Assembly: GCA_040753015.1 (NCBI GenBank)
Contig: JBFMHM010000002.1
Location: forward strand, 36,319-100,318
Length of the DNA: 64,000 bases
Direction of reading: 5' to 3'
Origin: Candidatus Omnitrophota bacterium
GTDB lineage: Bacteria > Omnitrophota > Gorgyraeia > Gygaellales > JBFMHM01
The notes beneath the pieces were generated by a model, which saw only the letters and a program-made list of their open reading frames with translations, was not told where the DNA came from and made no database searches. The position numbers and the translations under genes are program-made. Positions 13,730 through 53,757 of this stretch are shown piece by piece; position 1 is the first letter of the stretch; every line of letters starts with the position of its first letter.

Positions 13730-15058
13730 TCAGATCAGATGATTATGCTTCTTAACTGAATTGACAAATTCTTTTGCAACACTTACAGATGTATTCAATA
13801 CGGTTGACCGCGGATAAAACTGAGAAGTATTAACAAGAAAACCATTATTAAAAATAGTTTTTCTTTCTGGTATAAGCTTCGAGTAACCTATTGAGCGAAA
13901 AGTTTCAATGCGCTTTCCTCTGCTTAATTCAAAACCAGCTATCCACGATTCATTAAATTCTTTATTAATTTTTTTAAGATAAGGTAAATATAGTGAGAAT
14001 ATTTCTTCCTTAGTTTTATAAAAAAATGTATCTCCGTCAAAAATATATTTTGATATATAAAAAATTGAATAATCATTAAAATCTACTTTTGGATAAACAT
14101 TAGTAAGACCAATAACACCGGTAAAAGGCATTGATGAATCTTGCAAATTTAACATATAAAAAGGGGTGAGCGGCTTTGTTAATTTTAAAATAAACGATAA
14201 ATTATCGAGATAAATAATTTGTTTCAGTTTATTTTTATAATCTAAATAATTTCCTTCAATAAGCTCGCTAAAATCAAGATTTGATATAGTAAAAATATAA
14301 TTTTCTGACTTTATATTACCATCTTCTAATTCTATTCTATCGATTGTATTATTTTTATCTGCAATAACTTTCTGAACAGCATTTCCTTTTATAATTTTTA
14401 CACCGCTTTTCTTCAAATAATTCTCTAGAGCGTCTATCAATGTTTTAGGGGTCCCTTTTATATAACCCATCTTTTGAGAAAAATTTGTTCTTCGCGAAGA
14501 AGATAGCCTATTCATGCGGCTCCACATATCAACAGCGGTTAAGGATTTAATAGTATTGCCAAACTTTGATCTCATAATTGGTTGCCACAATAATCTATAA
14601 TTACTTTCTCCTCCAATTGAAATTAACCATTCTTTTACAGATGTTGACTCTATCGCTTTCCAATCCTTTTGACATTTAGCATAGAATAAAGTATACATTA
14701 ATCGAAATTTATCAATAATGGAAAGATTTGGATAAGTAAGAAGTTCTTTGAGCGTGCTAATAGAATAAGATTTTTGACCATCGAATACTCCCATGCGTGT
14801 AACATTAAATCCATAAGAGTTTTTAATCCCCAATTCATCCATTAGATTAAAAATACAACTATCTTCAAGAAGTAAAATATGATAAAAACGACTAACGATT
14901 GTTTCATCAACTTTTATCCATGAGCATGCTCCGCCTAAATTGTTTTCTTTTTCAACAACAGTTATATCGGTATAGCCGCTTTTATCTAGAAAATATGCGA
15001 TTGATAAACCCAAAAGCCCTCCGCCGATCACAGTTATTTTTGTTTTTAAAGTAGGCAT
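13730..15058 (-). CDS. FAD/NAD(P)-binding oxidoreductase (amine-oxidase / UDP-galactopyranose-mutase-like fold)
   Basis: N-terminal dinucleotide-binding motif KITVIGGGLLGLSIAYFL...VVEKENNLGGAC. Confidence 0.55.
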   Translation of the reverse strand: MPTLKTKITVIGGGLLGLSIAYFLDKSGYTDITVVEKENNLGGACSWIKVDETIVSRFYHILLLEDSCIFNLMDELGIKNSYGFNVTRMGVFDGQKSYSISTLKELLTYPNLSIIDKFRLMYTLFYAKCQKDWKAIESTSVKEWLISIGGESNYRLLWQPIMRSKFGNTIKSLTAVDMWSRMNRLSSSRRTNFSQKMGYIKGTPKTLIDALENYLKKSGVKIIKGNAVQKVIADKNNTIDRIELEDGNIKSENYIFTISNLDFSELIEGNYLDYKNKLKQIIYLDNLSFILKLTKPLTPFYMLNLQDSSMPFTGVIGLTNVYPKVDFNDYSIFYISKYIFDGDTFFYKTKEEIFSLYLPYLKKINKEFNESWIAGFELSRGKRIETFRSIGYSKLIPERKTIFNNGFLVNTSQFYPRSTVLNTSVSVAKEFVNSVKKHNHLI

Positions 15059-15060
15059 AT

Positions 15061-16527
15061 TTAATCTCGCATGCTTAAAAATGGACTCTTAATGGATATA
15101 CCAAATAGCCCTTTAATAGAACAAAAGCCTCTAAAATATTTTTTAAAATCGCTTAGTGTTCTTATTTTTCTAAAACTTTTCAAAATATATTTTGGTGATA
15201 AATAAAATGTCCTAAAAGCATGTTGATATAATGCTATCATCTTTTCTTTACCAATCTTAGGATTTATATATAATGGATTTTTTTGATCCATCCATTGCCG
15301 ATAGTCTGCCCAATCAATATTTTCTATAAGCCCGCCGTCTTGTTTGCAGAGATCGTATAGTTCTGTTCCCGGAAATGGTACAGGCATAAAAAATACGGGA
15401 AAATCAATATTCATAGCTTTGACGAAATGGATCGTGTTCTTAACCATCGTCTCATCTTCTCCTGGAAGACAGAGAATAACGCTTCCTATTGTTTCAATAC
15501 CAGCATTATGTACAGCTTCTATCCCACAAACTATCTGGCTGACCGTAATATTCTTCTTTATTAAGTCGAGACTAGCTTGATTAGCACTTTCGATACCCAA
15601 AGATATATTCCAGCATCCTGCTTTTTTCATAAGACGACAAAGCTCATTATCAACCAGATCACATCGCGTGTAGCATGACCAGTGTATATTTATCTTGTTT
15701 TCAAGCAATTTTTCGCATAGACTCATCACCCAATTTCTATTAATGGTAAATACGCTATCATGAAATATAACACCTTTCATTCCATAATAATCACAAAGAA
15801 ACTTAATCTCCTCAATAGCTCTTTTAATGCTTATTTGTCGCAGCTTTTTTCCATGAATTCTCGAATCGCAATAAACGCAACCATAAGGGCATCCCCTTTG
15901 AACAAGCATACCGTATGTTGGTAATTGTTTATAATTACTTGGTGGCGGTATATATTTATCCATATGAAGAAGGTGATAAGGAAACAAGGGAATGTCGTCA
16001 ATATTTTCGATTGGTAAAGGCAACACATTACTCCTTATACCATCCTTGCTTCTAAAAACAAGGCCTTCAATTATCGAAAAATCAAAATCGTCGTTAGATA
16101 ATGTCTCGGTAAGCTTTAGAAATTGGCATTCTCCTTCACCTCGTACGGCAAAATCAATATAAGGACATCTTTCCAATGTCTCTTGGGCGAATAATGTCGG
16201 ATGCGCGCCTCCTATGCATATTTTTGTGTTCGGCAAAACCTCTTTACATATTTTTGCTGTTGTAAAATAATTATCTGTTTGGCTCGTATAACAATTACCT
16301 AAACCAATAATATCAAACTTGTTGGCAATTAAATAACTCTTATAAGCGGCTTCATCCATCCCCATAGCGTAAGGATCGCAAATAGAAACATCATGCCCAT
16401 GTTTTCGCAAAACAGAAGCAATAGATAAAAGGCCGTGTGGCAAATATGCACCTGCGCCTTTACTATACTGCCCAAACATGTCTTCGGCATTAAGAAGCGC
16501 GGAAGATAATAATATTTTTATTTTCAT
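15061..16527 (-). CDS. Cobalamin-binding-domain radical SAM enzyme, paralog 3
   Basis: B12-binding-like N-terminus (LLSIASVLRKHGHDVSICD...IIGLGNCYT). rSAM motif VQRGCPYGCVYC. Confidence 0.8.
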   Translation of the reverse strand: MKIKILLSSALLNAEDMFGQYSKGAGAYLPHGLLSIASVLRKHGHDVSICDPYAMGMDEAAYKSYLIANKFDIIGLGNCYTSQTDNYFTTAKICKEVLPNTKICIGGAHPTLFAQETLERCPYIDFAVRGEGECQFLKLTETLSNDDFDFSIIEGLVFRSKDGIRSNVLPLPIENIDDIPLFPYHLLHMDKYIPPPSNYKQLPTYGMLVQRGCPYGCVYCDSRIHGKKLRQISIKRAIEEIKFLCDYYGMKGVIFHDSVFTINRNWVMSLCEKLLENKINIHWSCYTRCDLVDNELCRLMKKAGCWNISLGIESANQASLDLIKKNITVSQIVCGIEAVHNAGIETIGSVILCLPGEDETMVKNTIHFVKAMNIDFPVFFMPVPFPGTELYDLCKQDGGLIENIDWADYRQWMDQKNPLYINPKIGKEKMIALYQHAFRTFYLSPKYILKSFRKIRTLSDFKKYFRGFCSIKGLFGISIKSPFLSMRD

Positions 16528-18473
16528 AAATTACCTTTGTGTAAAAACGAATATGCACTATTTTTATCTATAAAAATTTGATGCCACAATTCCAGGCACA
16601 ATATACCCCAAATCTGACGAACGTAATTACCTTCTTTTTCTAACAATTTTTCAACCTCTTTAACATTAAATAAGCCTCTCTTTCGAGCAGAATCGCTTAA
16701 AATAATACTTCTAACAAAATCACAAACGGGACCCTTTTTGAGCCATTCTTTCAAGGGAACAGGAAACCCCATCTTATCGCGCCGATCAAGTATTAAAGAA
16801 GGCAAAACATTTTTCATTGCTTCACGTAGGATATGCTTTAATCTCCCGCCATGAAATTTTAATGCGGGTGGTAGCGTATTTGCAAACTCTACGATTCGAT
16901 AATCTAAAAGTGGTACCCTAGACTCAAGTGATGCTGCCATGCTTACACGATCTTCTATATGCATAAGGGCTGGCAATAACGTCTTCTGATCAAAATGCAA
17001 CATTTTATTTATATATGATTTTGTGCCTGCGCTATTAAATACTGAAGCAAAATGTTCAAACATTTTCTCCTTACTATGCAAGGATTGCATTTCTTTACTA
17101 AGAACTGATTTTAAATCTCCGCCTCTATCGATTAGCTTAAAATATCTACTATCCATGGACTCGAAAAGGCCGGTTTTCCAAAATTCCTTAAGCATTGGCA
17201 CATATTCTTTTAAAGCAGGAAGATTTTTAATAATCGAATTTAAAGTTACAATATGCCTGCCTTCCTCTTGACTTTCATAAATTGCTCCCTTAATACATTG
17301 TTCTAGATAAGCTATTGCATAACGAGTATAACCTCCAAAAATTTCGTCACCGCCATGGCCGCCTAAAACAACTTTTACATGTTGCGCAGCAAAGCTAGAA
17401 ACAACATATTGCGGTAAAAGGCCAGGGCCAGCCACCGGCTCATCCATACAATAAATAAGCTTTGGCATTAATCGTATAAAGCCATTTTCTTCTATCGTAA
17501 CAAAATGAAGTTTAGTATTTATGTTTTTAGCTACAACCTTTGCGTACTTACTTTCATCAAACAAAATACCTTCTTTAAACTTTCCAGTAAAACATTGAAA
17601 ATCGTTGCCGTATAACCGACCAGCCAAGCTCGCTACAACACTAGAATCAATACCACCGCTTAAATATGCCCCTAAAGACACATCGCTACGCAATTGAAGC
17701 TGTATAGAATCCTCCAAGAGAAACTTCAATCTATCTATTGAATATGCCTTACTATGCCTTGTGTCAACTTTATAATTCTGCTTCCAATATTCTTGTATCT
17801 GAAATTTATCACCATCTGAAAGAAACCAATTAATTTTATGCGCAGGCTCTAATTTCTTTATTCCCTTAAATAAAGTTTTATTATTAAAACAAAATTGGAA
17901 TGTAAGATACTCCTCTAATCCATCATAATTAACTTCGGCACGAATGCGAGGATGCTGAAGTATAGCTTTTATTTCTGAAGCAAATACAATGTTTCCGTTG
18001 GGAAATGCGTAGTAATAAAATGGCTTAATACCGAATTGATCACGTGCGGCAAAAAAAATCTTTTTTCTGCTATCAAAAATCGCAAAAGAAAACATACCAT
18101 TAATATATTCTAGGCATTTTGGGCCTTTTTGTTCATACAATTTAAGCAATACTTCAGTGTCTGAAGTAGTTTTAAACTTAACCCCTTTAAGCGATAATTC
18201 TCTTTTAAGTTCAAGATAATTATATATTTCTCCATTCAGAACCAATACCACTTGCTTATCATCTGTCAACATTGGTTGATGACCATGGTTAATATCAATA
18301 ATAGATAGACGCTGATGTCCAAATATAAAATTTTTACCTTTTTCTATACCACAATCATCTGGCCCTCGATGAATAAGTGTTTTCATCATGGCGCGCACAA
18401 TGAGCTCATTTTTACTAGTATTTATATTTTCTCCGACAATTCCACATATACCGCACATAACCCTAACCACCAC
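16524..18473 (-). CDS. Asparagine synthetase B-like amidotransferase, paralog 2
   Basis: MCGICGIVG N-terminus, YLSGGIDSS PP-loop. 4-nt overlap with downstream rSAM. Confidence 0.85.
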   Translation of the reverse strand: MVVRVMCGICGIVGENINTSKNELIVRAMMKTLIHRGPDDCGIEKGKNFIFGHQRLSIIDINHGHQPMLTDDKQVVLVLNGEIYNYLELKRELSLKGVKFKTTSDTEVLLKLYEQKGPKCLEYINGMFSFAIFDSRKKIFFAARDQFGIKPFYYYAFPNGNIVFASEIKAILQHPRIRAEVNYDGLEEYLTFQFCFNNKTLFKGIKKLEPAHKINWFLSDGDKFQIQEYWKQNYKVDTRHSKAYSIDRLKFLLEDSIQLQLRSDVSLGAYLSGGIDSSVVASLAGRLYGNDFQCFTGKFKEGILFDESKYAKVVAKNINTKLHFVTIEENGFIRLMPKLIYCMDEPVAGPGLLPQYVVSSFAAQHVKVVLGGHGGDEIFGGYTRYAIAYLEQCIKGAIYESQEEGRHIVTLNSIIKNLPALKEYVPMLKEFWKTGLFESMDSRYFKLIDRGGDLKSVLSKEMQSLHSKEKMFEHFASVFNSAGTKSYINKMLHFDQKTLLPALMHIEDRVSMAASLESRVPLLDYRIVEFANTLPPALKFHGGRLKHILREAMKNVLPSLILDRRDKMGFPVPLKEWLKKGPVCDFVRSIILSDSARKRGLFNVKEVEKLLEKEGNYVRQIWGILCLELWHQIFIDKNSAYSFLHKGNL

Positions 18474-19326
18474 CTATTCTGCAAGCAGCCGTCTTTTTTT
18501 TGTTACAATATGCATATTTTCTAATTGCTTCTTCTTTTGATTCATTATAAGTTTTTGAAAGGTTTCTATAGAAAATTTTCCATCCTCCAAATGGCCAATG
18601 ATAAAGCAATGCCATAACTAAATACCCAATTGTAGTTACGCTGCTTACCATCTTGCTATTACCTACCTTTTGGTCATACCGAAGGACAAACGGTATTTCT
18701 GTAAATTTACAACCTAAAAGATTTAATTTTATAACAGTCTCCAATGTTGAAGTAAAGCCCAATCCTTTAAGTTGTATAAAACCATTACCAAATATTTTAA
18801 CAGCATATTTTATAGCATGGCCGCGATAAGCCCTATATCCACAGGAATACTCTCTAACTCCTTTAACACCAAAAACCATCTTCATGAATAGATTAGCAAA
18901 ATAACTTACTAACGCCCTATAAACATTAACGCCTTTTTGACCACCGCCTGGCTTGAATCGTGAAGCAATAACAACATCATATCCATTCATAATTTGTTCA
19001 ATTAAGTATAAAAAATATCGAGGTTCGTGTGTATCATCGCAATCCATACGGATAACAATATCATCATTATCGCAACGCGAAGCAATATATTCAAACCCAT
19101 CCCTCTCCGTCTCTCCTAAACCCCGATTAATAACGTGATCAATAATATCTAAGGGTAATATATTAGTGTACCCTTGTAACACTAAAGATGTTTTATCTCT
19201 TGAGCCATCATTAACCACAACAATGCGATACTCAAATCCAATATTTTTGATACTATTCTCTATTTTAGGAAGCAAGCGAGGCAAAGAACCTTCTTCGTTA
19301 AAAACCGGTAACAGTATCCAAATCAT
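18463..19326 (-). CDS. GT2 polyprenyl-phosphate glycosyltransferase-like (DPM1-like)
   Basis: MIWILLPVFNEEGSL ... RIVVVNDGSRDKT. One C-terminal hydrophobic segment. Confidence 0.7.
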   Translation of the reverse strand: MIWILLPVFNEEGSLPRLLPKIENSIKNIGFEYRIVVVNDGSRDKTSLVLQGYTNILPLDIIDHVINRGLGETERDGFEYIASRCDNDDIVIRMDCDDTHEPRYFLYLIEQIMNGYDVVIASRFKPGGGQKGVNVYRALVSYFANLFMKMVFGVKGVREYSCGYRAYRGHAIKYAVKIFGNGFIQLKGLGFTSTLETVIKLNLLGCKFTEIPFVLRYDQKVGNSKMVSSVTTIGYLVMALLYHWPFGGWKIFYRNLSKTYNESKEEAIRKYAYCNKKKTAACRIGGG

Positions 19327-20660
19327 TATTTTCTATACTCCTTTTTATACATATCTTCATATATATAAAGATTGTTAAAAGTAAAGTATGAGCGATAAAG
19401 TAATTCTATTGGCGTTGGTGCCATCATAACAAAAGAATAATATTTATTACCTATTAAAGCTAAATTAGCAACAATCAGTGTAACAATTATAAAAACGCTT
19501 GCGATAAAACGTTTAAAAATTAATAAAAATCTATTATTATTTCGAATATCGAATATTAAAAAATATAAAAATTTCGCATTCAAAAGATATAATGGAAATA
19601 AAATTTGTAAATAATAATGAGCGGGTGTATAAGACTGGTACGGATTAGCACCAACCATTATAAATTCCGAAGCAAAAAATACGGTTAATATACATAAAAT
19701 CAATTTTAGTTCTCTCTTATTTAATAGAAATAAGCCCCCAACAGCACCAATCCACAAGTAATATGGAACAATTAGAATAAAATGGTTGGCTATTCTCAAC
19801 TTAAAAGAAATCCACCATTTTATAAGATCGAAATGCTGCGAAGTCACCCAGCGAAACATAGTATGGGTTAATGGCTGTTTTATAAAAGGCGTAACGAGAG
19901 AATAAACTGCTATAAGTCCAAGTAAGAGTACCGCATTTCTTTTAATAAATATCTCAAACCGCGAAGTAGCAATACCGTAAAAAAATAGAAATGGTAAGAA
20001 GTATATAGAACTAAAACTGGCAAATAATAATATTCCACTGAATAAGCCTAATATAAACGAATCACGTAATGCGTAAAATGAATCATTATTTGCAAAATGG
20101 TTAAGACGCAATGATAATGCGATTAATAAAACATAAGAAGCCAGCTGAAAAATTTCTGCCTTCCCTCCTGCGATTAGCGCTATAACAGCATAACTTGTCG
20201 CACATAAAAAACCAGCAAGGAGCCCAATTTTTTTCAAATTAAATATATAGCAACCAAGCCACCACATTGCATAAGAAACAACAGCCCATAAAATAATATT
20301 TATTATAAGATACGAGTTTTTTAATGTTGTAAAAAAAAGAAAAAAAGAAGATAGGAAAGGAATTAATATCCGATATTTATCTGGAGGATAATCGCAATAT
20401 ATGGCCGGTGATTTACCAGGAAAAATACCACCTAAAAAATACGCATTGCACATCAATCCATAACCTTCGGGATGCATCATTTCATTATCAATATCATTGT
20501 CATAACAATAACCGTGAGGATAATACGAAAGCACCTTACTCAATGTTGTATGTTGTAAACAATTAGTAATTAAAGGATCGATCTCTTTATGCAAAAATCC
20601 TTCCGTAACACATATAATTGCAAAAAACAAAAAAACCATAAAAGAAATATTTTTCTTCAT
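19326..20660 (-). CDS. Polytopic integral membrane protein, family A copy 1 (paralog of 22950-24317); candidate GT-C / polymerase-ligase-like, function unknown
   Basis: 444 aa, ~12 predicted TM helices. Clear sequence similarity to 22950-24317 (shared FLH..D.L...C....L...LSYYPHGY ... YTPDKYR...F motifs). Confidence 0.5.
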   Translation of the reverse strand: MKKNISFMVFLFFAIICVTEGFLHKEIDPLITNCLQHTTLSKVLSYYPHGYCYDNDIDNEMMHPEGYGLMCNAYFLGGIFPGKSPAIYCDYPPDKYRILIPFLSSFFLFFTTLKNSYLIINIILWAVVSYAMWWLGCYIFNLKKIGLLAGFLCATSYAVIALIAGGKAEIFQLASYVLLIALSLRLNHFANNDSFYALRDSFILGLFSGILLFASFSSIYFLPFLFFYGIATSRFEIFIKRNAVLLLGLIAVYSLVTPFIKQPLTHTMFRWVTSQHFDLIKWWISFKLRIANHFILIVPYYLWIGAVGGLFLLNKRELKLILCILTVFFASEFIMVGANPYQSYTPAHYYLQILFPLYLLNAKFLYFLIFDIRNNNRFLLIFKRFIASVFIIVTLIVANLALIGNKYYSFVMMAPTPIELLYRSYFTFNNLYIYEDMYKKEYRK

Positions 20661-21490
20661 AACAAAGCCCCGAGTATCAATAAATTATTTTCCATCAATG
20701 AATTCTTATTAGCTGCAGTGTGTTTTTTTGAAATAAAATATATAACGTTTTGAAATCTAAAACGCCGATTATAATATCTATCCGATATATCCTCAACTAT
20801 TCCATCAGTTTTAATTAATCGGCTATGCGGTATCTTTGGTAAAGGATGAACGCCGCTACTATAGCCAATCTTAAAAGCTTTTTTAGAAACAATTCTTATT
20901 GTAATTTTATCCTGATTCTTTAACAAATCTTTAGGCAGTTTTAATAAAAAATTATAGACTGGGAAAACATTGTAGAAAAATTTATCTGACTTATAGATTA
21001 TTAAAGATGATAATTTTCCTATATCATTTCCATTTATGTATATGCTAGAATTTTTAACATCGAAGTCTATCATCAATCGTAAGACAACTTCAATATTATC
21101 ATCGTTCATTAAACGATTAAATCTCCAATTTGATTTCGGAAGAAAAAAATCTTGTTCCATGGCTTCACCTGTATTCACTTGAAATTCCGAAAAAACAGTA
21201 GAATCTTTCCCGATGGGAAATTTTTTTACAGGATGAATGCGAGAACATAAAATAATTGCTGTAATTAAAATCAGAATGGACATTATGATTATCCTGCGAC
21301 AAAACCTAAGAGATGTAATAACCGCTGGATAATAAATAATATAAGTCATGATATATACTAACCAATGAGTCGGAGATATTACATACGCTATCAAAATTAT
21401 TAGTGGAATTATCGCATATATCCAGAATAACGAATTTTTCCTGAATCTATAACACCCCATAATCATATTACCGAATATTGTTGATAACAT
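20657..21490 (-). CDS. Membrane-anchored protein (3 N-terminal TM helices + ~190-aa extracytoplasmic domain), family B copy 1 (paralog of 24336-25139)
   Basis: C-terminal domain aligns with paralog: VVLRL..D.D..NS..YING...G...SL...K..KF...PVYN...KLPK......KITI.I.S.K.....YSSG.HP.P...H.RLIK.DG...DIS..YY.RRFRF.NVIY.ISKK. Confidence 0.5.
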   Translation of the reverse strand: MLSTIFGNMIMGCYRFRKNSLFWIYAIIPLIILIAYVISPTHWLVYIMTYIIYYPAVITSLRFCRRIIIMSILILITAIILCSRIHPVKKFPIGKDSTVFSEFQVNTGEAMEQDFFLPKSNWRFNRLMNDDNIEVVLRLMIDFDVKNSSIYINGNDIGKLSSLIIYKSDKFFYNVFPVYNFLLKLPKDLLKNQDKITIRIVSKKAFKIGYSSGVHPLPKIPHSRLIKTDGIVEDISDRYYNRRFRFQNVIYFISKKHTAANKNSLMENNLLILGALL

Positions 21491-21494
21491 ATGT

Positions 21495-22913
21495 CTAATT
21501 TTTTGAAAAAATATTAAAATTCAGAGCTCCGTAGCGTATAACACCTAAAAACGAATAACCAAATGCTTTTTTTACTGTAGCGGCTAAGCTAAGAAGAAAC
21601 ATTAAATGAAGAATACAAAAGGGTGACCGTATAACTAAAAATTTCCAGAAAAAACTAAGCTTTGGATACCAAACAAAATACACTGCTATCTTTTGTATGC
21701 GTTCCTGCATACGAATATCCTTTTGTTTTAAAACAGAATGGTGATAGTAGCTTTGTAAATTATTATAATCAATTTCCCCCAAAAGCCCTTTCTCCTTCGC
21801 AATGCGTTCTAATTCCGTACCCGGATAAGGCGTAAATATTGTCGAAGAAACAATATCGGCTTTAATGCGCTGATTAAGATGAATAAGCCCCAAGGTCTCG
21901 TCTAATGTTTCAGTTGGTAAACCAAACATATTACCCGTAGCAAGAATAATCTTCCTTTCTTTTATTTTTTTAGCAATATTTATAATTACCTCATCCTTCA
22001 TATCTCTCTTTAGAATCTCTTTCCTAAGGCGATAAGAACCAGCTTCAATTCCAAATGTAATCGTTCGACAATTTGCATCAGCAAGCGCATCTATCTGCTC
22101 AGAAGTAGTAATATCAACACGAAGATAGCAAGTAAACGGCAAATTAATATTATTTTTATAAACTGTCAAAAAATCAAGTAACCACTGATTATTTGTATTT
22201 AATGTTGAATCTGCAAAAATAATATACCTAAGCCTTCGATACCTTTTAATAAGTTCTTTCAATTCGGCAATAATATTTAGCGGGCTCCTAAATCTAACAA
22301 ATTTTCCTAAATCCTTATACATATCTTTTAGCTTATGGCTGTAGCAATAGTTACAGTTGAACGGACAGCCCCGAGAGGCCATAACTGACATTGTCTCAAG
22401 ATTAGTAAAATACCGATACTTATCATAAATACTGCGGTCTGGGGTTGGCAATGAATCTAAATTAGCTATAAGCGGTGATAATGGATTCTTATGTAAAACT
22501 CTATTTTTTAAAATACAGATATTGTTCAAGTCGTAAATCGATTCTACAGTACCATTATATTTTTCGCATAATTCTACAATCGCATTCTCTGACTCTCCCA
22601 TTGATATTGCATCAATTCCCTGTTCAAAAACTACCTCAGGAAAAAAAGTAGGATGTGGGCCACCTAAAAGCGTAAGACAGCGCGGATTATATTTTTTATA
22701 CTCGCGCATTAAAGATAAACCCCAATTTAGATTACCAGTTACACAGTAGAAACCTAAAACATCAGGACTAAACCTTTTTAATCCATCGACAATATTCTTT
22801 TCAAAATTATCCACAAAAATTTCGCTAACGTGTCCATGCGTTTTCAAAGAAGAAGACAAGAACATATAGCCCTGCAATTGCTCGGTAAGATTTTGGATAA
22901 AAGCTACTTTCAT
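21495..22913 (-). CDS. Cobalamin-binding-domain radical SAM enzyme, paralog 4
   Basis: B12-binding-like N-terminus. rSAM motif ASRGCPFNCNYCYS. Lies between the two copies of the duplicated membrane module. Confidence 0.8.
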   Translation of the reverse strand: MKVAFIQNLTEQLQGYMFLSSSLKTHGHVSEIFVDNFEKNIVDGLKRFSPDVLGFYCVTGNLNWGLSLMREYKKYNPRCLTLLGGPHPTFFPEVVFEQGIDAISMGESENAIVELCEKYNGTVESIYDLNNICILKNRVLHKNPLSPLIANLDSLPTPDRSIYDKYRYFTNLETMSVMASRGCPFNCNYCYSHKLKDMYKDLGKFVRFRSPLNIIAELKELIKRYRRLRYIIFADSTLNTNNQWLLDFLTVYKNNINLPFTCYLRVDITTSEQIDALADANCRTITFGIEAGSYRLRKEILKRDMKDEVIINIAKKIKERKIILATGNMFGLPTETLDETLGLIHLNQRIKADIVSSTIFTPYPGTELERIAKEKGLLGEIDYNNLQSYYHHSVLKQKDIRMQERIQKIAVYFVWYPKLSFFWKFLVIRSPFCILHLMFLLSLAATVKKAFGYSFLGVIRYGALNFNIFSKN

Positions 22914-22949
22914 AATTAGATTAATCCTAGAATTAATTGATATAGTATT

Positions 22950-24317
22950 CTATAATTTTTCTTTACTAACTTTTTCATAAAGATAAATATTGTCAAATGT
23001 AAAATAAGAATGATGAAATATTTCTACTGGTATTGGTGAAAGCGCGTTATAAAAAAAATATTTGTTGCCAATTAACCTGATATTGGACATAAAGAGTATA
23101 AGTAAAATAAATATTGCTGCTAATACTCTTTTAATAAAGATTAAAAACGACTTGCTATTATTACGTCTTTCGAGTATCAAAAAATAAATAAATCTAGCAT
23201 TTAAAAAATAGATAGGGAATATTAATTGAAGGTAATATGCGGCTGGCGTATACCATTGATACGGATTAGCTCCGCACATTATAATTTCTGAAGCAATAAA
23301 AACACTAGCAATACATAAAATAATTTTAGACTCTTTTACTTTTAACATAAATAGGCCAAAAATAGCTCCAAACCAAAGAGGCAGCGGAATAAGAAAAATA
23401 AAATGATTTAATATTCTACTCTTAAAAGTATAAAACCATTTACTTAGATTAAAACCATGCCCAAAAATCCAACTCAATACAGAAGCTGATTTGCCTTGGT
23501 CAATAAAAGAATTTATGCTAAAGTAAACTAATAAACAACCAATAACCAAAAATAAGTTTCGTATCAAAAATTTTTTAAAATTCATTACCATGAGGCCATA
23601 AAAAATTAAAAATGGGATAAAATAAACAGTAGCGCCACCAGCAAAAATACCTAACCCGCTAAAAATCCCTAGTAAAAAAGAATTTATTAATCCTTGTTTT
23701 GAAATATCATCTGAAAAATGTTCTAAAAACAACGCTAATGCAATCAAAATAACATAAAAACTTAACTGAAAAATTTCAGCCTTAACACCAGAACTAAAGA
23801 TTATCATTGTATAACTTGTTGCGCATAAAAATGCTGCTATAAAACCAATTATCATAGAATTAAATATGCGCTTCCCAAGCCACCATATCGAAAATGCAAC
23901 AAGCATCCAACATAATAAATTTATAATAAAATAGGCATTATTTAAACTAAGGAAATATAACAAAAAAGATGCTAGAAAAGATGGAAATACGCGGTATTTG
24001 TCTGGGGTATATTGAGCAGATAGTTTAGATAAATTAGATTTTTTCTTAAAAATTGTAGCCATCTTATAAGTATTTATAGCTAAAGCGTAACCCTCCGCAT
24101 GAAGTTTATGATTACCAACATCGTCATCGAACATATAACCATGGGGATAATACGACAAGCTTTGAGTTAACGAAGAATCTCGGATACAAGCCGTAAAAAG
24201 ATAATCAAAATTTCTATGTAAAAAACCTTCAAAAAAACAAATAATAAATATCAATACTAGAAATAAAGTAGTATAAAAATGTTTTCTATTTTTAGGCAAA
24301 ACAATAAATTCGCGCAT
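22950..24317 (-). CDS. Polytopic integral membrane protein, family A copy 2
   Basis: 455 aa, paralog of 19326-20660 (see above). Confidence 0.5.
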   Translation of the reverse strand: MREFIVLPKNRKHFYTTLFLVLIFIICFFEGFLHRNFDYLFTACIRDSSLTQSLSYYPHGYMFDDDVGNHKLHAEGYALAINTYKMATIFKKKSNLSKLSAQYTPDKYRVFPSFLASFLLYFLSLNNAYFIINLLCWMLVAFSIWWLGKRIFNSMIIGFIAAFLCATSYTMIIFSSGVKAEIFQLSFYVILIALALFLEHFSDDISKQGLINSFLLGIFSGLGIFAGGATVYFIPFLIFYGLMVMNFKKFLIRNLFLVIGCLLVYFSINSFIDQGKSASVLSWIFGHGFNLSKWFYTFKSRILNHFIFLIPLPLWFGAIFGLFMLKVKESKIILCIASVFIASEIIMCGANPYQWYTPAAYYLQLIFPIYFLNARFIYFLILERRNNSKSFLIFIKRVLAAIFILLILFMSNIRLIGNKYFFYNALSPIPVEIFHHSYFTFDNIYLYEKVSKEKL

Positions 24318-24335
24318 ATTTTCTTATAAACTATA

Positions 24336-25139
24336 TTAAAAAATAGTTCCCATAATCAGCGGATCTTTATCTTTTGTAAAATATTTAGTCGAAATTAAAT
24401 AAATAACATTATCGAACCTGAAACGCCTGTGGTAATAATTATTAGATATGTCCTGCATTGAGCCATCTGCTTTTATCAAACGACAATGGCTAAAAACTGG
24501 AAAAGGATGTATTCCGCTGCTATAAGCTAAACTATAATCCTTTGTTGAAGTAATTTTAATCGTAATTTTATTAACCCCAAAAAATACCTCTTTGGGTAGC
24601 TTAACTATATAATTATAAACGGGATAACTATAAAATTTTCCAGTCTTATTGACAAGCAAAGATGCTACAGTGCCAAGCCTTTTCCCATTGATATAAAGAT
24701 GTGAATTTTCTATATCAATATCAGCAACCAATCTTAAAACAACATCGCTATCTTTATTATTAAGCCAATGATTAAAACACCAGTTATTTTTTGGAATTAA
24801 AAAATCTTGTTCGATAGACTCCCCTTTTTCTACTTGAAAAATTGAAATTAAAGTTAAATCTTTTTTATCCGGCATTTTACTAGAAGACTTTAATCGTGAA
24901 ATAAAAATAAAACAGATTATAATCGATAAAATAATTGCGATCGTTCTTCGTTGAAATACTTTTTGTAAGAGACCCAACAATGCATAGTAAAAACAAAGCG
25001 TAAACATATACATAATAGGAACTACTGAAGTAAATATAAACATTACAATAATCAACGCCGGCATAAACAACCAAAGGATAAGGCCGTACCTCCTATTTTT
25101 AAGAAAAACTAGCAATGAACTCATGATATTTTTAAGCAT
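24336..25139 (-). CDS. Membrane-anchored protein, family B copy 2
   Basis: 267 aa, paralog of 20657-21490 (see above). Confidence 0.5.
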   Translation of the reverse strand: MLKNIMSSLLVFLKNRRYGLILWLFMPALIIVMFIFTSVVPIMYMFTLCFYYALLGLLQKVFQRRTIAIILSIIICFIFISRLKSSSKMPDKKDLTLISIFQVEKGESIEQDFLIPKNNWCFNHWLNNKDSDVVLRLVADIDIENSHLYINGKRLGTVASLLVNKTGKFYSYPVYNYIVKLPKEVFFGVNKITIKITSTKDYSLAYSSGIHPFPVFSHCRLIKADGSMQDISNNYYHRRFRFDNVIYLISTKYFTKDKDPLIMGTIF

Positions 25140-25177: not shown

Positions 25178-26434
25178 TTATTTACTGCTAATGTAATCGG
25201 AAATAACATTTGTTAACCTTTCAGCAATTATTCCATAACCAACTTTATGGGTATGCACATTATCACCTATTAAAGTACTGTTATCGCCTTCAAAAACTCT
25301 ACTCAAGTCACAAAATATCACATTTTTTTCTTTTCTAGATAATTTCTCCAAACCTTCGATCATTCTAATATAACCTTGAACGCAGAAATTTACCTCTGGT
25401 TCATAATATTTATACAGATTTATTTTTTCTTGTTCGGATAAAGGATTTTTAAGAAACAAGGTTGGTTGCAAAGCAACTATTAAAGTTGAATCAATACTAT
25501 CGAGCGAACGTGCCATACAAGTTATATTTTTTAAATAATTTTCCACTGCTTGTCTATTGTATGGGTCAAAATCTGTTCTAGCCTTAATTACATTTAAATC
25601 AACAGGCAAAGATTGCAACTCACTGGCAAGTTTACCCGGTTCAGGTTTAAACGCGGTTTTTGGATATTTAGGCCTTTTCGACTGATCGCTTGTCTGACTT
25701 GGTTTACGATACTTACGCGTAGTTAAAAAACTCTTTAAATAAGCTATAAATTTTAAATCACGAAATAATTGTTGTGGCCCAGCACTAATCCAATCCTTAT
25801 ATCTATTGAATGCATTGACGATATGCCCATTACTATAGGATAAATTAATAGGCATATGGTAAGCATGCTGTATATCGTTAAAGCCGTCTAATGCAATTAC
25901 TAAATCAGGGTCAATATTAATCCCGAATAACTGAATCGCGATTAACTCTTGAAACGATATCCAAGCAGCTCCAGCTAAATTAAATATTTTAAAATTAACT
26001 TCTGGATGTCTTAATTTTAATCTTTCATAAAGTTGTTTATCTAAGGTACAACTCTCGCCTACAGCCCAACTTGTTGCAACCGAACCACCAGTAATTATAA
26101 TTCGGAATTCATTCTTTTTTTTAGGTGGTAAATTTTTAAATTCTGGAGAACGGAATCCATAACTGTTAAAACGCGCCTTAGCCCCTCCTAAGTCAACACA
26201 TTCGTCTTTTGAAAAATAAGACTCTAATACATTTTTAGTCTTTCCTAAAATTAAATCCGGAGGAAAGCTCGAAACAACATATTGTTGATATGTAAACAAT
26301 TCTGTATCTATTAAATAACCCGTTGGTACCTTATTTATAAACAACCTAAATGCTATTTCCGTAAAAAATAGCATACCTATACAAAAAATCAGAACAACAC
26401 ATATAATGCTAATTACTTTTAATATCTGGCGCAT
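25178..26434 (-). CDS. Membrane-anchored SGNH/GDSL-like hydrolase/acyltransferase-fold protein (putative sugar O-acyl esterase/transferase)
   Basis: N-terminal TM helix. Candidate SGNH blocks: IIITGGSVATSW (block I), ALDGFNDIQHA (block III-like), C-terminal GDNVHTHKVGYGIIAERL (DxxH block V). Confidence 0.4.
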   Translation of the reverse strand: MRQILKVISIICVVLIFCIGMLFFTEIAFRLFINKVPTGYLIDTELFTYQQYVVSSFPPDLILGKTKNVLESYFSKDECVDLGGAKARFNSYGFRSPEFKNLPPKKKNEFRIIITGGSVATSWAVGESCTLDKQLYERLKLRHPEVNFKIFNLAGAAWISFQELIAIQLFGINIDPDLVIALDGFNDIQHAYHMPINLSYSNGHIVNAFNRYKDWISAGPQQLFRDLKFIAYLKSFLTTRKYRKPSQTSDQSKRPKYPKTAFKPEPGKLASELQSLPVDLNVIKARTDFDPYNRQAVENYLKNITCMARSLDSIDSTLIVALQPTLFLKNPLSEQEKINLYKYYEPEVNFCVQGYIRMIEGLEKLSRKEKNVIFCDLSRVFEGDNSTLIGDNVHTHKVGYGIIAERLTNVISDYISSK

Positions 26435-27444
26435 TAAACTCTCCTTGCTTTTGTGCTTTTTTTTGCGATTATATAGTGATTTCTTGCATCAACGGTTCTT
26501 ATTATCTCACAAAAATCTTCTAACATAAACCATTGTTTAATTTCTTCGAAACTATATAGATCGTTTATAGATGGCGATATAGCATCAAAATATCCATCAA
26601 TATTCTCTTCCCCGCATATTCTGAATTTACGTTTTTTCATTACCTCACGAACACAATTAAGCCTTTCATCTAAACTCATATTATATGTTTTTTTTCTCCA
26701 GTACATATACTCATTTAGCGTCAAATAATCTTCTATGACGCCTGGCCTGGGCTCTCCATAGATCATAACAAATAAATATCCATTTGGACGCACCAAAGAA
26801 GCTATTTTTTTAAATGTTCCATAAGCATCACCTGTGTGGTGCAATACACCAAAACACCACACTAAATCAAATTTTTCATCTATTTGAAATGGCTTTAAAA
26901 GATCAACTTGTATTGCTCTATGATTTTTAAATTCAGCACATGCTTTTTTTGTCTTCTCAATACCATACCCAGACTGATCAATGGATAATACATTTGCCCC
27001 TAATTTAGACAAAGCCCAAGAATAACGTCCAGAACCACACCCAACATCTAGTATATTTTTCCCTTTAAACCATCCACAAGACAGAGATGTAAAACGACAA
27101 ACATTATTGGTAGCTTGTTTCAAAAAGTTATTATTTTTTAAATTATACCCATTATTCTCTATATTTTTCCATTGAAAATCAAAACTATCATTTGTCCGCT
27201 TAATAAAAGGCAAATCATTAATTCTTGGTGTAGCAATATATCTTACCAAAGAAGAAATACGGCTTACCTCAGATTCTAGATAATTAACAATTGCTTCTAA
27301 TTCTTTAACACTCCTCGTCTTATTGAGTTTTTTTTTGCGATAAATATCTTTTATTTTAAAAAGATATTTATAAAATAAGTATCTAGTTTTTTTCGCTAAT
27401 CGCACAAATATCTCCGCTAAGGTTAATAGACCTGTACAAACCAA
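26434..27444 (-). CDS. Class I SAM-dependent methyltransferase (paralog of 30496-31443)
   Basis: ILDVGCGSGRYSWAL motif. C-terminal half colinear with 30496-31443 (LVWCFGVLHHTG....F......V.P.GYLF.M.YGEPRP..IED...GYFDAISP.INDLY). The annotated start overlaps the upstream GT by ~60 nt, so the true start is uncertain. Confidence 0.7.
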   Translation of the reverse strand: MVCTGLLTLAEIFVRLAKKTRYLFYKYLFKIKDIYRKKKLNKTRSVKELEAIVNYLESEVSRISSLVRYIATPRINDLPFIKRTNDSFDFQWKNIENNGYNLKNNNFLKQATNNVCRFTSLSCGWFKGKNILDVGCGSGRYSWALSKLGANVLSIDQSGYGIEKTKKACAEFKNHRAIQVDLLKPFQIDEKFDLVWCFGVLHHTGDAYGTFKKIASLVRPNGYLFVMIYGEPRPGVIEDYLTLNEYMYWRKKTYNMSLDERLNCVREVMKKRKFRICGEENIDGYFDAISPSINDLYSFEEIKQWFMLEDFCEIIRTVDARNHYIIAKKSTKARRV

Positions 27445-28591
27445 CTAAAGATCGCGCCAACTTATCATTATTATGCAGACTAAGAATTGAGCTTCGCGCA
27501 ATCATCTTCTTTTTTTTAAGTTCGGCAGGATTAGATAAAAAATATTTAAGAGTTGTTTTTAAGTCATCTAAATTTGTAAGAATAAATCCGGAGTCCTTCA
27601 AATCATCGGTCACAAACTCATCTCTAACATAAGTTATGGCAGGCACACCAAAAAACATACTTTCAACTTGGGCATTAGCATAGTATCCCATTTTCATTTT
27701 GCCAATAGATAAATCTGCATTTTGATATTCTTTTAAAACCTCAAGATGCGGAATTTTGTTAAGAAAAAGAAATTCAATATTATAGCCATCTTGCTTTAAA
27801 CTATCTATGATGTTTCTAATCTCTTTGGTGTCTTCAATGCCGGGGTGATTTGTTGCGTGCACTATTTTGATGCTATCTTTTATTTCTTTACCATTACCAC
27901 TTGAAAAAAAGCTCGAAATATCGATTTCTGGAGTAAAAAAAGATAAACATACAGAATTATTTGGTACAAAATCTTTTAAATCTGGAGTTGTGAATAAAAA
28001 TAAATCTGCATAATTTGTAACTAAATTCCTTCGTTGTTTGACATAATCCGATTCGCAATTATATTTACCAGTATAATTAATAAAATAATCACAATTTTGA
28101 CAAATATTAACCTCGGGACTAATTTTCATATTATTTGTCCTATCCCTAATATCACATCCCCGGAAATGCACAACAACTTTCCGCTTCATTTTTTTAGCCA
28201 ATGATAACTCCCAACCTGAATACGAAATACTAAGCATAAAATGTAAATGCAAAACCTCGTAACGCGCTGCCACCTTCCAAAACCAATACATTTCTTGCAT
28301 GGGGCGTAAAAATGGTAGTTTTGAATAAGTAACTTTAAAATCAGACTTATCCCAATAACGACTAGTCCCAATAGCCAAATAATCGGCCTTTATCCCCTGG
28401 CGGCGTAAAGCAGAAACCATATAGTACGGAACATGAATCATATACGATATATGCAATACAGATTGTGAATAAGTATTATTTTTTAATAATACCAACAAAA
28501 TATAATTAATAGGATAAAATATACCGAGTGTTAATTTATAAATAAACAACCAACTTGGAAAAATATTTTTTTTAAATCTTGAATCTATCAT
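27383..28591 (-). CDS. Glycosyltransferase, GT-B fold (GT4/GT1-like C-terminal domain)
   Basis: C-terminal EVLKEYQNADLSIGKMKMGYYANAQVESMFFGVPAI resembles the GT4 donor-binding E-x7-E region. Confidence 0.45.
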   Translation of the reverse strand: MIDSRFKKNIFPSWLFIYKLTLGIFYPINYILLVLLKNNTYSQSVLHISYMIHVPYYMVSALRRQGIKADYLAIGTSRYWDKSDFKVTYSKLPFLRPMQEMYWFWKVAARYEVLHLHFMLSISYSGWELSLAKKMKRKVVVHFRGCDIRDRTNNMKISPEVNICQNCDYFINYTGKYNCESDYVKQRRNLVTNYADLFLFTTPDLKDFVPNNSVCLSFFTPEIDISSFFSSGNGKEIKDSIKIVHATNHPGIEDTKEIRNIIDSLKQDGYNIEFLFLNKIPHLEVLKEYQNADLSIGKMKMGYYANAQVESMFFGVPAITYVRDEFVTDDLKDSGFILTNLDDLKTTLKYFLSNPAELKKKKMIARSSILSLHNNDKLARSLVGLYRSINLSGDICAISEKN

Positions 28592-30480
28592 AATGAATCA
28601 GGATGGCTACGCAACCATTCTTCAAGAAAAAGTAAATTCCATAATTTTGCTGAACTATCATGAGCTTCTGAATGCCTATCCACTATTGAGGCGATTTCTT
28701 TCATATTGAATAAAAACGGCAGGTATTCGGAATCTAACAGTTTCTTTCGAATATTATTTTTTAATTTATTGGCAAACCAAATACCAAGCGGTATTCCAAA
28801 GCCCATTTTAGGCCGCTCAATAAAATCTTTAGGGTAATAACACCCTGCAATCTTTTTTAAAATAAATTTCTTATGATATTCGATGCCATTATTTATTTTT
28901 TCTTCTTTTAGTTTAAATTCGACCGGCATATTAGCTGCTGTTTCCACCATCTCATGATCTAATAACGGAGCCCTTACCTCAATAGAATTTGCCATAGATG
29001 CAATATCGACTTTCGTCAAAATATCAAACGGTAAATAGGTCATCAAATCAAGATATTGAAGCCTGCTTATCATTGGCTGATGACCTATATTCATCAAGTT
29101 TCTGCGATTTTTAGCAATATCACAAACAACGTCTCTGTATTCTTTCTTAAAAAGATTTCTTCGTTCGCCTGGAGAAAAATGTTTTGCGGTATGACAATGT
29201 AATTCATAAGCATGATTAGTAATATTTCCGGGTACGATTAGACGCTTAAATCGAAAATAATAATAATACCCTAAACTACGCAATTTTTGCTTAAATGTAA
29301 AATTCGACTGATTATTAGAAAAATCACCCTGCAAAGTTCGCATAACATATTCGTAACTGTTATACCCGGCAAAATTTTCATCACCGCCATCTCCACTAAA
29401 AACCATCTTCACATGTTTAGCAGCCATACGAGAGACATAATAAGTAGGAATACTAGATGAATCTGCAAACGGTTGACCATAGTGCCTTACTAAAAGAGGC
29501 AAGAGTCCAAATGAATCCACTTCTACAATTTCGGTATGATGTTCTGTGCGATTTATTTGAGAAGCTGTTTTTGCATAATTTAATTCTGAAAAATCACTTT
29601 CATTAAAGCCGATGCTAAATGTTTTTACTGGTTGTTCAAGTATATCCGCCATATATCCAGTGATTAAACTAGAATCAATCCCACCGCTTAAGAATGCGCC
29701 AAAAGGAACATCACTAACCAACCGTAGTTTTACTGATTCTCTTAACTTACAATCAAGCTTGTGCTCCCAATCTTCAATTGACAGAGAACAATCTTCTGTA
29801 AAATGAAGCTTCCAATATCTTTTCTTAATCATATTTCCTGTTAATAAATCAATTTCTAATAAATGTGCCGGCTCAAGAGAATATACCTCTTTATAGATTG
29901 TCCGTGGAGCATGAATATACTGCCAAGACAGATAATCATCTAAAGCATCAAAATCAACCTTAAAATCCCCGATAGTTTTATAAAGAGGCTCTAATTCGCT
30001 TGAAAAAAATAACGAGTCGTTTCTGATTGTATAAAACAGAGGTTTTTTACCTAATCTATCCCTAGCGATAATAACTTTTTGTTTTTTAAAATCTACTGCG
30101 ACAAAAGCAAACATCCCACGGAAATGCTTTAAACAATTATTGCCCCACTCTAAGTATGCATTAAGCACAACCTCTGTATCTGAACTAGTATTAAAAACAT
30201 ACCCAGTTTTTTTTAATTCTTCTTTTATAACTTGAAAATTATATATTTCACCATTGTAAGAAATTAAGCCAACCTTAGCATAATCCTGCATTGGTTGATG
30301 GCCACTTTCGAGATCAATAATGGATAGCCTAGTATGCCCAAAGCACACAGGACCGATGCTCTCTATACCGAAATCATCTGGACCGCGATGTTTAAGTAGC
30401 CCTATCCCATTTTTTACGATACCAACTGCTTTATTAGCCAGTTCTCGATTAAGACTTATTGCTCCGAAAATTCCACACAT
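28588..30480 (-). CDS. Asparagine synthetase B-like amidotransferase, paralog 3
   Basis: MCGIFGAIS N-terminus, AFLSGGIDSS PP-loop. Confidence 0.85.
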   Translation of the reverse strand: MCGIFGAISLNRELANKAVGIVKNGIGLLKHRGPDDFGIESIGPVCFGHTRLSIIDLESGHQPMQDYAKVGLISYNGEIYNFQVIKEELKKTGYVFNTSSDTEVVLNAYLEWGNNCLKHFRGMFAFVAVDFKKQKVIIARDRLGKKPLFYTIRNDSLFFSSELEPLYKTIGDFKVDFDALDDYLSWQYIHAPRTIYKEVYSLEPAHLLEIDLLTGNMIKKRYWKLHFTEDCSLSIEDWEHKLDCKLRESVKLRLVSDVPFGAFLSGGIDSSLITGYMADILEQPVKTFSIGFNESDFSELNYAKTASQINRTEHHTEIVEVDSFGLLPLLVRHYGQPFADSSSIPTYYVSRMAAKHVKMVFSGDGGDENFAGYNSYEYVMRTLQGDFSNNQSNFTFKQKLRSLGYYYYFRFKRLIVPGNITNHAYELHCHTAKHFSPGERRNLFKKEYRDVVCDIAKNRRNLMNIGHQPMISRLQYLDLMTYLPFDILTKVDIASMANSIEVRAPLLDHEMVETAANMPVEFKLKEEKINNGIEYHKKFILKKIAGCYYPKDFIERPKMGFGIPLGIWFANKLKNNIRKKLLDSEYLPFLFNMKEIASIVDRHSEAHDSSAKLWNLLFLEEWLRSHPDSL

Positions 30481-41479: not shown

Positions 41480-41523
41480 TGAACATTATTATACTTATTC
41501 AGAAGAAAAAAACAAGTAATTTA

Positions 41524-48642: not shown

Positions 48643-48658
48643 TTAATTTTAACCGAGC

Positions 48659-48770: not shown

Positions 48771-48797
48771 ATTCTAAAAAATATATTTGAAAATTAT

Positions 48798-51778
<2,981 letters not shown>

Positions 51779-51798
51779 CACAAATTTTCAAAGAACTG

Positions 51799-51871: not shown

Positions 51872-51882
51872 GATAAACTTAG

Positions 51883-52162: not shown

Positions 52163-53757
<1,595 letters not shown>

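Follow-up and report, generated by a model that had tools for sequence, protein, structure and literature searches.

The 64,000-nucleotide stretch analysed here (hereafter the window; positions 36,319 to 100,318 of contig JBFMHM010000002.1 in the Candidatus Omnitrophota assembly GCA_040753015.1) carries two copies of a two-gene membrane module, each made up of a small subunit (S) and a large polytopic subunit (L), and separated by a gene for a cobalamin (B12)-dependent radical SAM protein. Module 2 comprises S2 (24336–25139, minus strand; 267 aa, with three N-terminal transmembrane (TM) helices and a beta-sandwich soluble domain) and L2 (22950–24317, minus; 455 aa, polytopic, a putative glycosyltransferase of the GT-C fold); it is followed by the B12-radical SAM gene (21495–22913, minus; 472 aa; Pfam B12-binding, 3.8e-15, and Radical_SAM, 1.7e-18) and by module 1, with S1 (20657–21490, minus; 277 aa) and L1 (19326–20660, minus; 444 aa, likewise a putative GT-C-fold glycosyltransferase). 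All five genes are co-directional and tightly packed: the stop codon of S1 and the start codon of L1 overlap in ATGA, and the stop codon of L1 overlaps, in TAATG, the start of a gene for a family 2 glycosyltransferase (GT2) of the polyprenyl-phosphate sugar synthase type (18463–19326, minus; 287 aa; Pfam Glycos_transf_2, 3.6e-17). The exact database matches of these genes carry locus tags in the range AB1755_02495 to 02510, on a contig of 260 kb. A preliminary description of this DNA had placed two paralogous modules around a B12-radical SAM gene, and all five open reading frames (ORFs) were recovered at exactly these positions.

The paralogy is unambiguous. L1 and L2 share 49% identity over 438 residues, that is, along their whole length (E = 1e-154), and S1 and S2 share 41% over 266 residues (E = 1e-67), similarities far beyond chance; L2 and S2 are matched by hidden Markov models (HMMs) of their respective families at 8.7e-193 and 9e-125. 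The conserved blocks picked out by eye in the preliminary description are present, namely YYPHGY and Y(P/T)PDKYR in L and RRFRF and NVIY.IS.K in S. In an identity matrix of ten S-L pairs, the two window pairs (47% for L, 41% for S) were as far from each other as from the pairs of other lineages (44–48%), so the duplication may be ancient, as had been suggested, or one of the two copies may have been imported; either history fits the distances. Two pairs were seen in this window only, each outside locus having a single pair.

The genes themselves are real, since they have homologs in other assemblies (E from 1e-30 to 1e-135). In the NCBI record of this metagenome-assembled genome (MAG), S1 is annotated as a protein of 208 aa starting at M70 (P0006), which removes two of the three TM helices. 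The 277-aa reading is supported over this shorter call, because the N-terminal TM region aligns with conserved residues of homologs of ~260 aa predicted by other pipelines. S2 was never returned by the protein database search and may be mis-called or absent in the NCBI record.

Neither protein could be placed in a named family, in line with the preliminary description. L1, L2, S1, and S2 had no match in Pfam or NCBIfam, and L1 and L2 are not members of the curated GT-C families PMT_2, ArnT, PglB/STT3, GtrC, or YfhO in these two databases. Member-by-member scans of both families, with E-values up to 10, yielded a single match, of the L homolog P0009 to PMT_2, and nothing for S, none of whose nine members matched a Pfam or NCBIfam model significantly. 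Searches of PDB sequences with three family profiles, as well as with P0009, returned nothing meaningful, and the best PDB sequence match of the S profile was to an unrelated protein (E = 0.021), with no assignment to any defined family of carbohydrate-binding modules (CBMs). A strong match to a characterised family, which would have made the modules a routine polymerase duplication, was not found in these profile searches.

Homologs are also very scarce. A database of 5.8 billion clusters contained five L and three S sequences, the window's own copies included, and when 1.84 billion cluster representatives were searched exhaustively by HMM, eight strong and three marginal relatives of L were recovered. 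Scanning the genomes of 185,579 GTDB species revealed one locus, in an Anaerolineae MAG, while JGI metagenomes contributed three loci, and a further protein search started from the S alignment added one extra homolog only. No description of the S-L pair, or of split GT-C/CBM systems, was found in the literature. The S-L pair is thus very rare and occurs in a handful of uncultured lineages, in metagenomes only.

Where the family does occur, its two genes stay together. A search for the pair in other genomes recovered 11 distinct loci (L001–L010 and L012) in which an S homolog, identified by phmmer or HMM search, lies directly upstream of L on the same strand, with a GT2 gene recurring nearby in several of them; in one more locus (L014), an upstream ORF occupies the S position and was identified by its size and place alone. 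The paired loci with measured composition span 33–73% GC, and one of them is the Anaerolineae MAG (L010). Pairwise identities of S and L are tightly correlated (r = 0.98, Mantel p ~2e-4, ten pairs), which proves that S and L are co-inherited as a unit and is consistent with a physical partnership. The fixed gene pairing envisaged in the preliminary description is strongly supported, both by the S-to-L adjacency in every core-family locus recovered and by this co-divergence.

Several loci depart from the compact S form of the window. S is N-terminally extended, to 343–447 aa, in L005, L007, L009, L010, L012, and apparently L014. Proteins of 429–447 aa are found in the more distant lineages (L007, 7143–8486; L009, 2849–4153; L010, 8685–9974; L012, 3–1292), where the extension of ~170 residues adds further hydrophobic segments and, in L007, also a soluble insert. 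The S gene of L008 is divided between two ORFs (50–337 and 383–901), probably through a frameshift or an assembly error. No S gene adjoins the one for P0016, which is the L-like protein most remote from the family (E = 1.7e-6); a 252-aa protein encoded next to P0016 was considered as an S homolog and rejected, as it had no HMM match.

We then consider what kind of protein L is. An AlphaFold2 model of L1, built on an alignment of five sequences, reached an overall predicted local distance difference test (pLDDT) score of 60 and a predicted TM-score (pTM) of 0.58, with a TM core at pLDDT 70–90 for most of residues 120–400 and a poorly modelled first loop and C-terminus. The preliminary estimate of about 12 TM helices was roughly right: the model contains 11–13 long helices, in agreement with hydropathy, and a hand-built topology resolves them into 11 TM helices plus an interfacial hydrophobic helix, with the N-terminus inside and the C-terminus outside. 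Across 12 members, this 11-TM topology obeys the positive-inside rule, K/R-rich short loops falling inside and the acidic loop outside. When the model was compared by Foldseek with 350,542 PDB chains, a probability of at least 0.9 was reached, among the 50 matches listed, solely by GT-C enzymes, namely yeast Stt3 (8agb and 8age; E = 0.024–0.038, TM-score 0.36–0.40) and Pmt4 (9i5k); Pmt1/2 came next with lower probability, while transporters and G-protein-coupled receptors remained below 0.2, at TM-scores of ~0.12. At the sequence level, P0009 reaches the gathering score of the Pfam PMT_2 model (1e-5; 26.2 vs 26.1 bits).

Conserved residues of L lie in the first loop, where a GT-C enzyme would typically carry its acidic motif. 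A segment of ~90 residues after TM1 is net acidic and contains an N-D-x-D...E motif; in the core family, Y47, D56, E65, and R97 never vary and N55 and D58 hardly do, all lying in the first loop or at its end, and E65 and R97 are retained even in the three distant relatives P0016–18. The first loop of L2 bears YYPHGY.FDDD and QYTPDKYR. The charge bias suggests that this loop faces outward. GT-C enzymes of multi-component systems are described as having 8–13 TM helices, an extracellular loop with a DxD-type motif, and low sequence similarity, and as being recognised mostly through structure (PMC8035078); L has a helix number within this range and an acidic motif in its first loop. We regard a GT-C fold of L as probable, because Stt3 and the PMTs are, though weakly matched, its only convincing structural neighbours, P0009 just reaches PMT_2, the first loop carries N-D-x-D...E, and the adjoining gene encodes an ArnC/PgfS-like GT2.

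The S protein was modelled with better confidence. The AlphaFold2 model of S1, which also rests on a five-sequence alignment, has a mean pLDDT of 77, rising to ~90 in the soluble domain. It consists of TM helices at ~20–38, 43–63, and 66–85, followed by a beta-sandwich at ~100–260, and hydropathy agrees with three TM helices, so that the layout of about three TM helices and a soluble domain given in the preliminary description is upheld. Foldseek matches of S1 in the PDB include accessory beta-sandwich domains of glycoside hydrolases of families GH156, GH2, GH98, and GH86 (E from 3e-4 to 4e-2), the best being that of a GH156 sialidase (3e-4) and the GH2 matches being glucuronidases; the cellulose-synthase subunit BcsB and a rhamnose-/galactose-binding lectin of the mushroom Pleurotus are also among them. 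In the predicted model, the soluble domain of S is CBM-like or lectin-like in fold, and its binding of a glycan is a prediction from that fold. Invariant in the S family are G108, EQDF (112–115), W122, R138, H222, D234, S236, and RRFR (242–245), and within the TM region Y46, T49, and Y53 are invariant in S1, S2, and two outside homologs. From the three TM helices and the positive N-terminus, the domain should face outward.

The gene that is translationally coupled to L1 points to the kind of donor involved. The best NCBIfam matches of the GT2 at 18463–19326 are to ArnC (3e-19), PgfS, PpgS, AglJ, and Dol-P hexose transferase, all below the equivalog cut-offs, and the protein has one C-terminal hydrophobic segment; as read from its sequence, it likely makes a lipid-linked donor. 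The two other small GT2 proteins of the cluster (3467–4504 and 8624–9502) match AglJ, PgfS, PpgS, and ArnC best. Small GT2 genes of a similar type are separated from S-L by a few genes at most in L001, L003, L007, L009, and L014, and outside loci often add a methyltransferase together with a short-chain dehydrogenase/reductase (SDR) nearest to UDP-4-keto-pentose/UDP-xylose synthase and to the C-terminal domain of ArnA. Such a gene context would suit a polyprenyl-phosphate-linked donor for L. The locus of P0016 (L011) is Arn-like too, with a PgfS-like GT2 (7.5e-85), a formyltransferase, an aminotransferase, an AsnB protein, and an FAD oxidoreductase.

In the window, the module belongs to a single-strand gene cluster of ~40 kb (~429 to 41147), downstream of a complete rRNA operon (16S, tRNA-Ile, tRNA-Ala, 23S, and 5S; 48652–53755, minus) and of the housekeeping genes cvpA, dnaG, and rpoD. 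The cluster encodes Wzt (an ABC ATPase with Wzt_C) and Wzm (an ABC-2 permease) at 36254–38469 (minus; Pfam ABC_tran, Wzt_C at 5e-18, and ABC2_membrane), three small GT2 and two GT4 glycosyltransferases, two DegT aminotransferases, several methyltransferases, one carbamoyltransferase, four AsnB-like amidotransferases, four B12-radical SAM proteins, and two radical SAM proteins of the SPASM type. This gene set of Wzm/Wzt, glycosyltransferases, and tailoring enzymes marks it as a surface-polysaccharide locus of the ABC-transporter type in which sugars are heavily tailored, and Wzm/Wzt is probably the export route of the polysaccharide that the S-L modules decorate. Polysaccharide-synthesis genes, including ABC-2 permeases, surround the pair in L001, L007, L009, and L014 as well.

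This context bears on the proposal, raised in the preliminary description next to a GT-C transferase, that L is a Wzy-like polymerase or a WaaL-like ligase acting on undecaprenyl-diphosphate-linked glycans, with S as its periplasmic co-factor. L is indeed a polytopic protein of ~450 aa in a surface-glycan cluster, the ABC-transporter pathway requires a ligase, none was recognised in the window, and Wzy and WaaL sequences are so divergent that absent profile matches are weak evidence. Nevertheless, L had no Wzy_C or O-antigen ligase profile match at E-values up to 10, and neither WaaL or Wzy nor the SEDS proteins RodA and FtsW appeared among the 50 fold matches listed; its large conserved loop follows TM1, as in GT-C enzymes, whereas that of WaaL and Wzy comes late, the recurring neighbour is a GT2 of the lipid-monophosphate sugar synthase type, and the Wzm/Wzt route needs no Wzy. 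With no profile or fold signal in its favour and in a Wzm/Wzt context, this reading of L was rejected as highly improbable, and of the candidates first put forward it is the GT-C transferase with a periplasmic partner that the evidence favours.

Taken together, these observations make it reasonably likely, in our judgement, that S and L form a two-subunit extracytoplasmic glycosyltransferase of the GT-C type, whose binding module is a membrane-anchored subunit of its own and which adds side-chain sugars to a Wzm/Wzt-exported polysaccharide. A GT2 at the cytoplasmic face would load a sugar from its nucleotide-activated form onto polyprenyl phosphate, the candidates being the protein encoded at 18463–19326 and either of the remaining ArnC/AglJ-like GT2, and before that step the sugar may be tailored by B12-radical SAM, amidotransferase, or FAD-oxidoreductase proteins encoded nearby. 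The lipid-linked sugar would next be flipped to the outer face of the membrane by a flippase that may be encoded elsewhere, and L, with its 11 TM helices and its acidic first external loop bearing N-D-x-D...E, would transfer it to the exported glycan. S, anchored beside L by its three TM helices, would hold or select the acceptor through its CBM-like beta-sandwich, and with two modules there would be two specificities, for donors or for acceptors.

A number of results weigh against this interpretation. The critical first loop of L is modelled at pLDDT 30–38, the whole L model is just moderately confident, and its Foldseek matches are weak (E = 0.02–0.4, TM-score 0.36–0.40, root-mean-square deviation 14–15 Å). 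PMT_2 is touched by one of 12 members, at the threshold only, the other eleven falling below it; hhalign detected no relation between the L family and the PMT_2 proteins of the window and L001 (probability 0.2), which a local L HMM also failed to detect, and PDB sequences searched with L profiles yielded no match. Neighbouring genes that are inherited together can be expected to diverge in parallel anyway, so the correlation is no proof of contact between S and L. As for S, the beta-sandwich is a generic fold matched at best with an E-value of 3e-4, and TM3 is basic on both flanks, so that the domain could face the cytoplasm. A Pfam scan of every ORF of 150 aa or more from 429 to 47927 found no flippase of the GtrA, MATE, Wzx, or ArnE/F type. 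Finally, ten ORFs around the pair in the Anaerolineae locus were scanned, and no glycan-synthesis gene was among them.

That every link between L and GT-C enzymes is weak leaves some room for the GT-C likeness being spurious, in which case S-L would be a membrane complex acting on the envelope in another way (for example through a modification other than glycosyl transfer, or in structure or export), with its active part in the beta-sandwich of S. The invariant polar set of S (EQDF, H222, D234, and RRFR) is large for a plain binding module and would fit a catalytic site too. We consider this quite unlikely, given that the high-probability fold matches are GT-C enzymes only and that the pair is found in a consistent context of lipid-sugar synthase, nucleotide-sugar SDR, and methyltransferase genes.

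The missing flippase raises another alternative, namely that L, or the 3-TM region of S in the manner of GtrA or GacJ, moves or helps to make the polyprenyl-phosphate sugar, with the transfer left to another enzyme. The cluster is tiled by ORFs, and the only gap able to hold an extra gene is 41147–41524; the flippase may be unlinked or, more speculatively, the 3-TM part of S may contribute. GtrA has 3–4 TM helices, and GacJ is a 3-TM helper and activator of a GT2 (PMC8035078). The invariant Y46, T49, and Y53 of S would accord with a function of that region, and the fold search of L did include matches of the MFS type. These, however, had probabilities below 0.2 and TM-scores of 0.11–0.14, against 0.36–0.40 for the GT-C enzymes; S and L had no profile match to GtrA, MATE, or Wzx even at E-values of 1–10, and neither the invariant acidic loop motif of L nor the conserved soluble domain of S is a feature of flippases. 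A flippase or synthase role as the main function of the pair is thus very unlikely.

A third possibility retains the GT-C-like nature of L and changes the acceptor, which could be a protein (as in PMT/Pgf O-glycosylation), lipid A or core (as for ArnT), or another envelope polymer, S then selecting that acceptor. The nearest structures of L, Stt3 and the PMTs, are protein glycosyltransferases, the neighbouring GT2 proteins match PgfS, of protein O-glycosylation, about as well as ArnC, and the Anaerolineae locus that is devoid of glycan-synthesis genes among its scanned neighbours has a surface protein with Ig/SH3 repeats. Nonetheless, the pairs of the window, L001, L007, L009, and L014 are surrounded by polysaccharide genes, and the CBM-like fold of S suits a glycan acceptor better than a protein; we therefore judge such an acceptor unlikely, and an exported polysaccharide remains the acceptor we favour.

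To place a two-subunit transferase of this kind among known systems, we compared it with enzymes that decorate envelope glycans from lipid-linked donors. On published architecture, its closest characterised analogue appears to be the GT136 enzyme ORF12 of Citrobacter youngae O1, the GT-C component of a three-component system by which side-chain ribofuranose is attached to an O antigen exported by an ABC transporter (PMC11127046). In ORF12, the first of 11 TM helices is followed by a small helical domain in the periplasm, a catalytic Asp lies close to TM1, and the C-terminus is a fused, beta-rich CBM that binds the unmodified O polysaccharide, as assayed with residues 503–652; the partners of ORF12 are a lipid-phosphate sugar synthase and a flippase (PMC11127046). 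As in the window, its gene resides in an ABC-transporter O-polysaccharide cluster together with a lipid-phosphate sugar synthase, and L and S jointly reproduce the ORF12 parts list. The two differ in that the CBM of ORF12 is fused after TM11, whereas S is a separate protein, encoded upstream and equipped with three TM helices of its own; the donor synthase is of the phosphoribosyltransferase type there and a GT2 at the S-L locus; and no MATE flippase was recognised in the window cluster.

Resemblance to ArnC/ArnT and to systems of the GtrB/GtrC type (CsbB/YfhO, GtlA/GtlB) lies in a GT2 of the ArnC/PgfS/AglJ type adjoining a polytopic protein with an acidic outer-loop motif. With ArnC/ArnT in particular, the outside S-L loci share the SDR resembling the ArnA C-terminal domain, and the PMT_2 model reached by P0009 also covers ArnT-like proteins. 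Unlike in those systems, L of the window has no profile match to PMT_2, ArnT, GtrC, or YfhO, the cluster has no recognised flippase of the GtrA or ArnE/F type, and S is an obligate extra subunit. The mycobacterial enzymes EmbC and AftD use CBMs to hold their acceptor polysaccharide (PMC11127046), and EmbA/B/C and AftD resemble S-L in combining a GT-C membrane core with beta-sandwich carbohydrate-binding modules; they carry these fused within single polypeptides of more than 1000 aa, however, while L is minimal (~445 aa) and its module split off, and PDB sequence searches detected no similarity between them and L. The eukaryotic Stt3 oligosaccharyltransferase and PMT1-PMT2, which the L model resembles best in structure, show that GT-C enzymes can work as multi-subunit membrane complexes; they differ in donors and acceptors and in far larger catalytic subunits with luminal domains of their own, and in the fold search S had no homology to subunits of the oligosaccharyltransferase.

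The cooperation of a lipid-sugar synthase with a GT-C enzyme assisted by a CBM is already established; what is new here is a GT-C-like family outside the curated ones and its conserved split architecture. If the proposed function is correct, L would represent an undescribed GT-C family outside Pfam and NCBIfam and without a solved relative, and an acceptor-binding module that is a separate membrane-anchored subunit would extend the architectures of extracytoplasmic glycan-decorating systems. The S-L pair could then be used to trace such enzymes in uncultured phyla (Omnitrophota and Chloroflexota), and it would be a small, separable system for studying how GT-C enzymes recognise polysaccharide acceptors. 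Its practical reach is limited, since the family is extremely rare and seen in metagenomes only. S could also be more than a tether: its polar cluster (EQDF, H222, D234, and RRFR) might complete the active site or set the linkage, a part taken in PglB/Stt3 by the soluble domain, its 3-TM part might supply a flippase function or GT2 activation, and the membrane-tailed radical SAM protein might tailor the lipid-linked sugar. We find this extension rather doubtful; were all of it to hold, the result would be a compact, self-contained unit of donor tailoring and transfer of a kind not described for GT-C systems.

The B12-radical SAM protein between the modules (21495–22913) ends in a hydrophobic C-terminal tail and had no NCBIfam equivalog at cut-off. 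It is only distantly related to the three other B12-radical SAM paralogs of the window (25% identity, ~85–108 bits), and of the radical SAM proteins compared, the one most similar to it is encoded at 7464–8933 of L014 (32% identity, 200 bits), four genes downstream of the S-L pair of that locus. Of the loci with enough flanking sequence, two thus have this subtype close to S-L. Its placement hints that the protein might tailor the sugar handled by the S-L module, perhaps through C-methylation of the lipid-linked intermediate. Most S-L loci lack this radical SAM subtype, which therefore does not belong to the core of S-L.

The cluster also contains a second, conventional lipid-sugar/GT-C set of five genes as identified by Pfam (3467–9502, minus), consisting of the lipid-sugar-synthase-type GT2 at 3467–4504, a DegT aminotransferase (4458–5579), a PMT_2 GT-C protein (5576–7198), a B12-radical SAM protein (7185–8624), and the other GT2 of the same type (8624–9502), all on the minus strand. 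Its first three genes (3467–7198) form an Arn-like trio, and the cluster thus uses the standard GT-C route too. The GT-C candidates of the cluster number three (L1, L2, and the PMT_2 protein), and there are also three GT2 of the lipid-sugar-synthase type; such a set would fit three separate side-chain additions.

Among the tailoring genes of the same glycan cluster, the four AsnB-like glutamine amidotransferase paralogs are located at 1532–3451, 16524–18473, 28588–30480, and 38372–40312, the four B12-radical SAM genes at 7185–8624, 9496–10899, 15061–16527, and 21495–22913, and the two SPASM-type radical SAM genes at 10905–11951 and 40314–41147, which makes the polysaccharide locus unusually rich in tailoring functions. 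An FAD oxidoreductase of the cluster (13730–15058) has a counterpart in L011 (29% identity), and a 402-aa protein belonging to no Pfam or NCBIfam family (27383–28591) is 32% identical to another 402-aa protein of L011 (751–1959; E = 8e-67); an unnamed gene set seems to travel with these glycan clusters. Directly upstream of S2, a gene for a 418-aa protein (25178–26434) has a weak GDSL/SGNH match only (E = 0.006), and in L009 a GDSL_2/AlgX-like protein (1127–2830) is likewise encoded directly upstream of S. Judging by their sequences, these GDSL-type genes may code for a periplasmic polysaccharide O-acyl-modifying enzyme tied to the module.

Beyond the cluster, a step in GC content from ~0.32 to 0.46 is explained by the rRNA operon. 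On the plus strand, a GH18-like protein (53981–54832) precedes a 230-aa protein without a family (54866–55558) and an AbiEii nucleotidyltransferase toxin (55552–56337), the latter two probably forming a toxin-antitoxin pair of the AbiE type. The minus strand at 56347–63924 is occupied by two very large ORFs of 1595 and 893 aa; Omnitrophota reportedly encode very long proteins, according to the title of one study (bioRxiv 10.64898/2026.06.07.730766).

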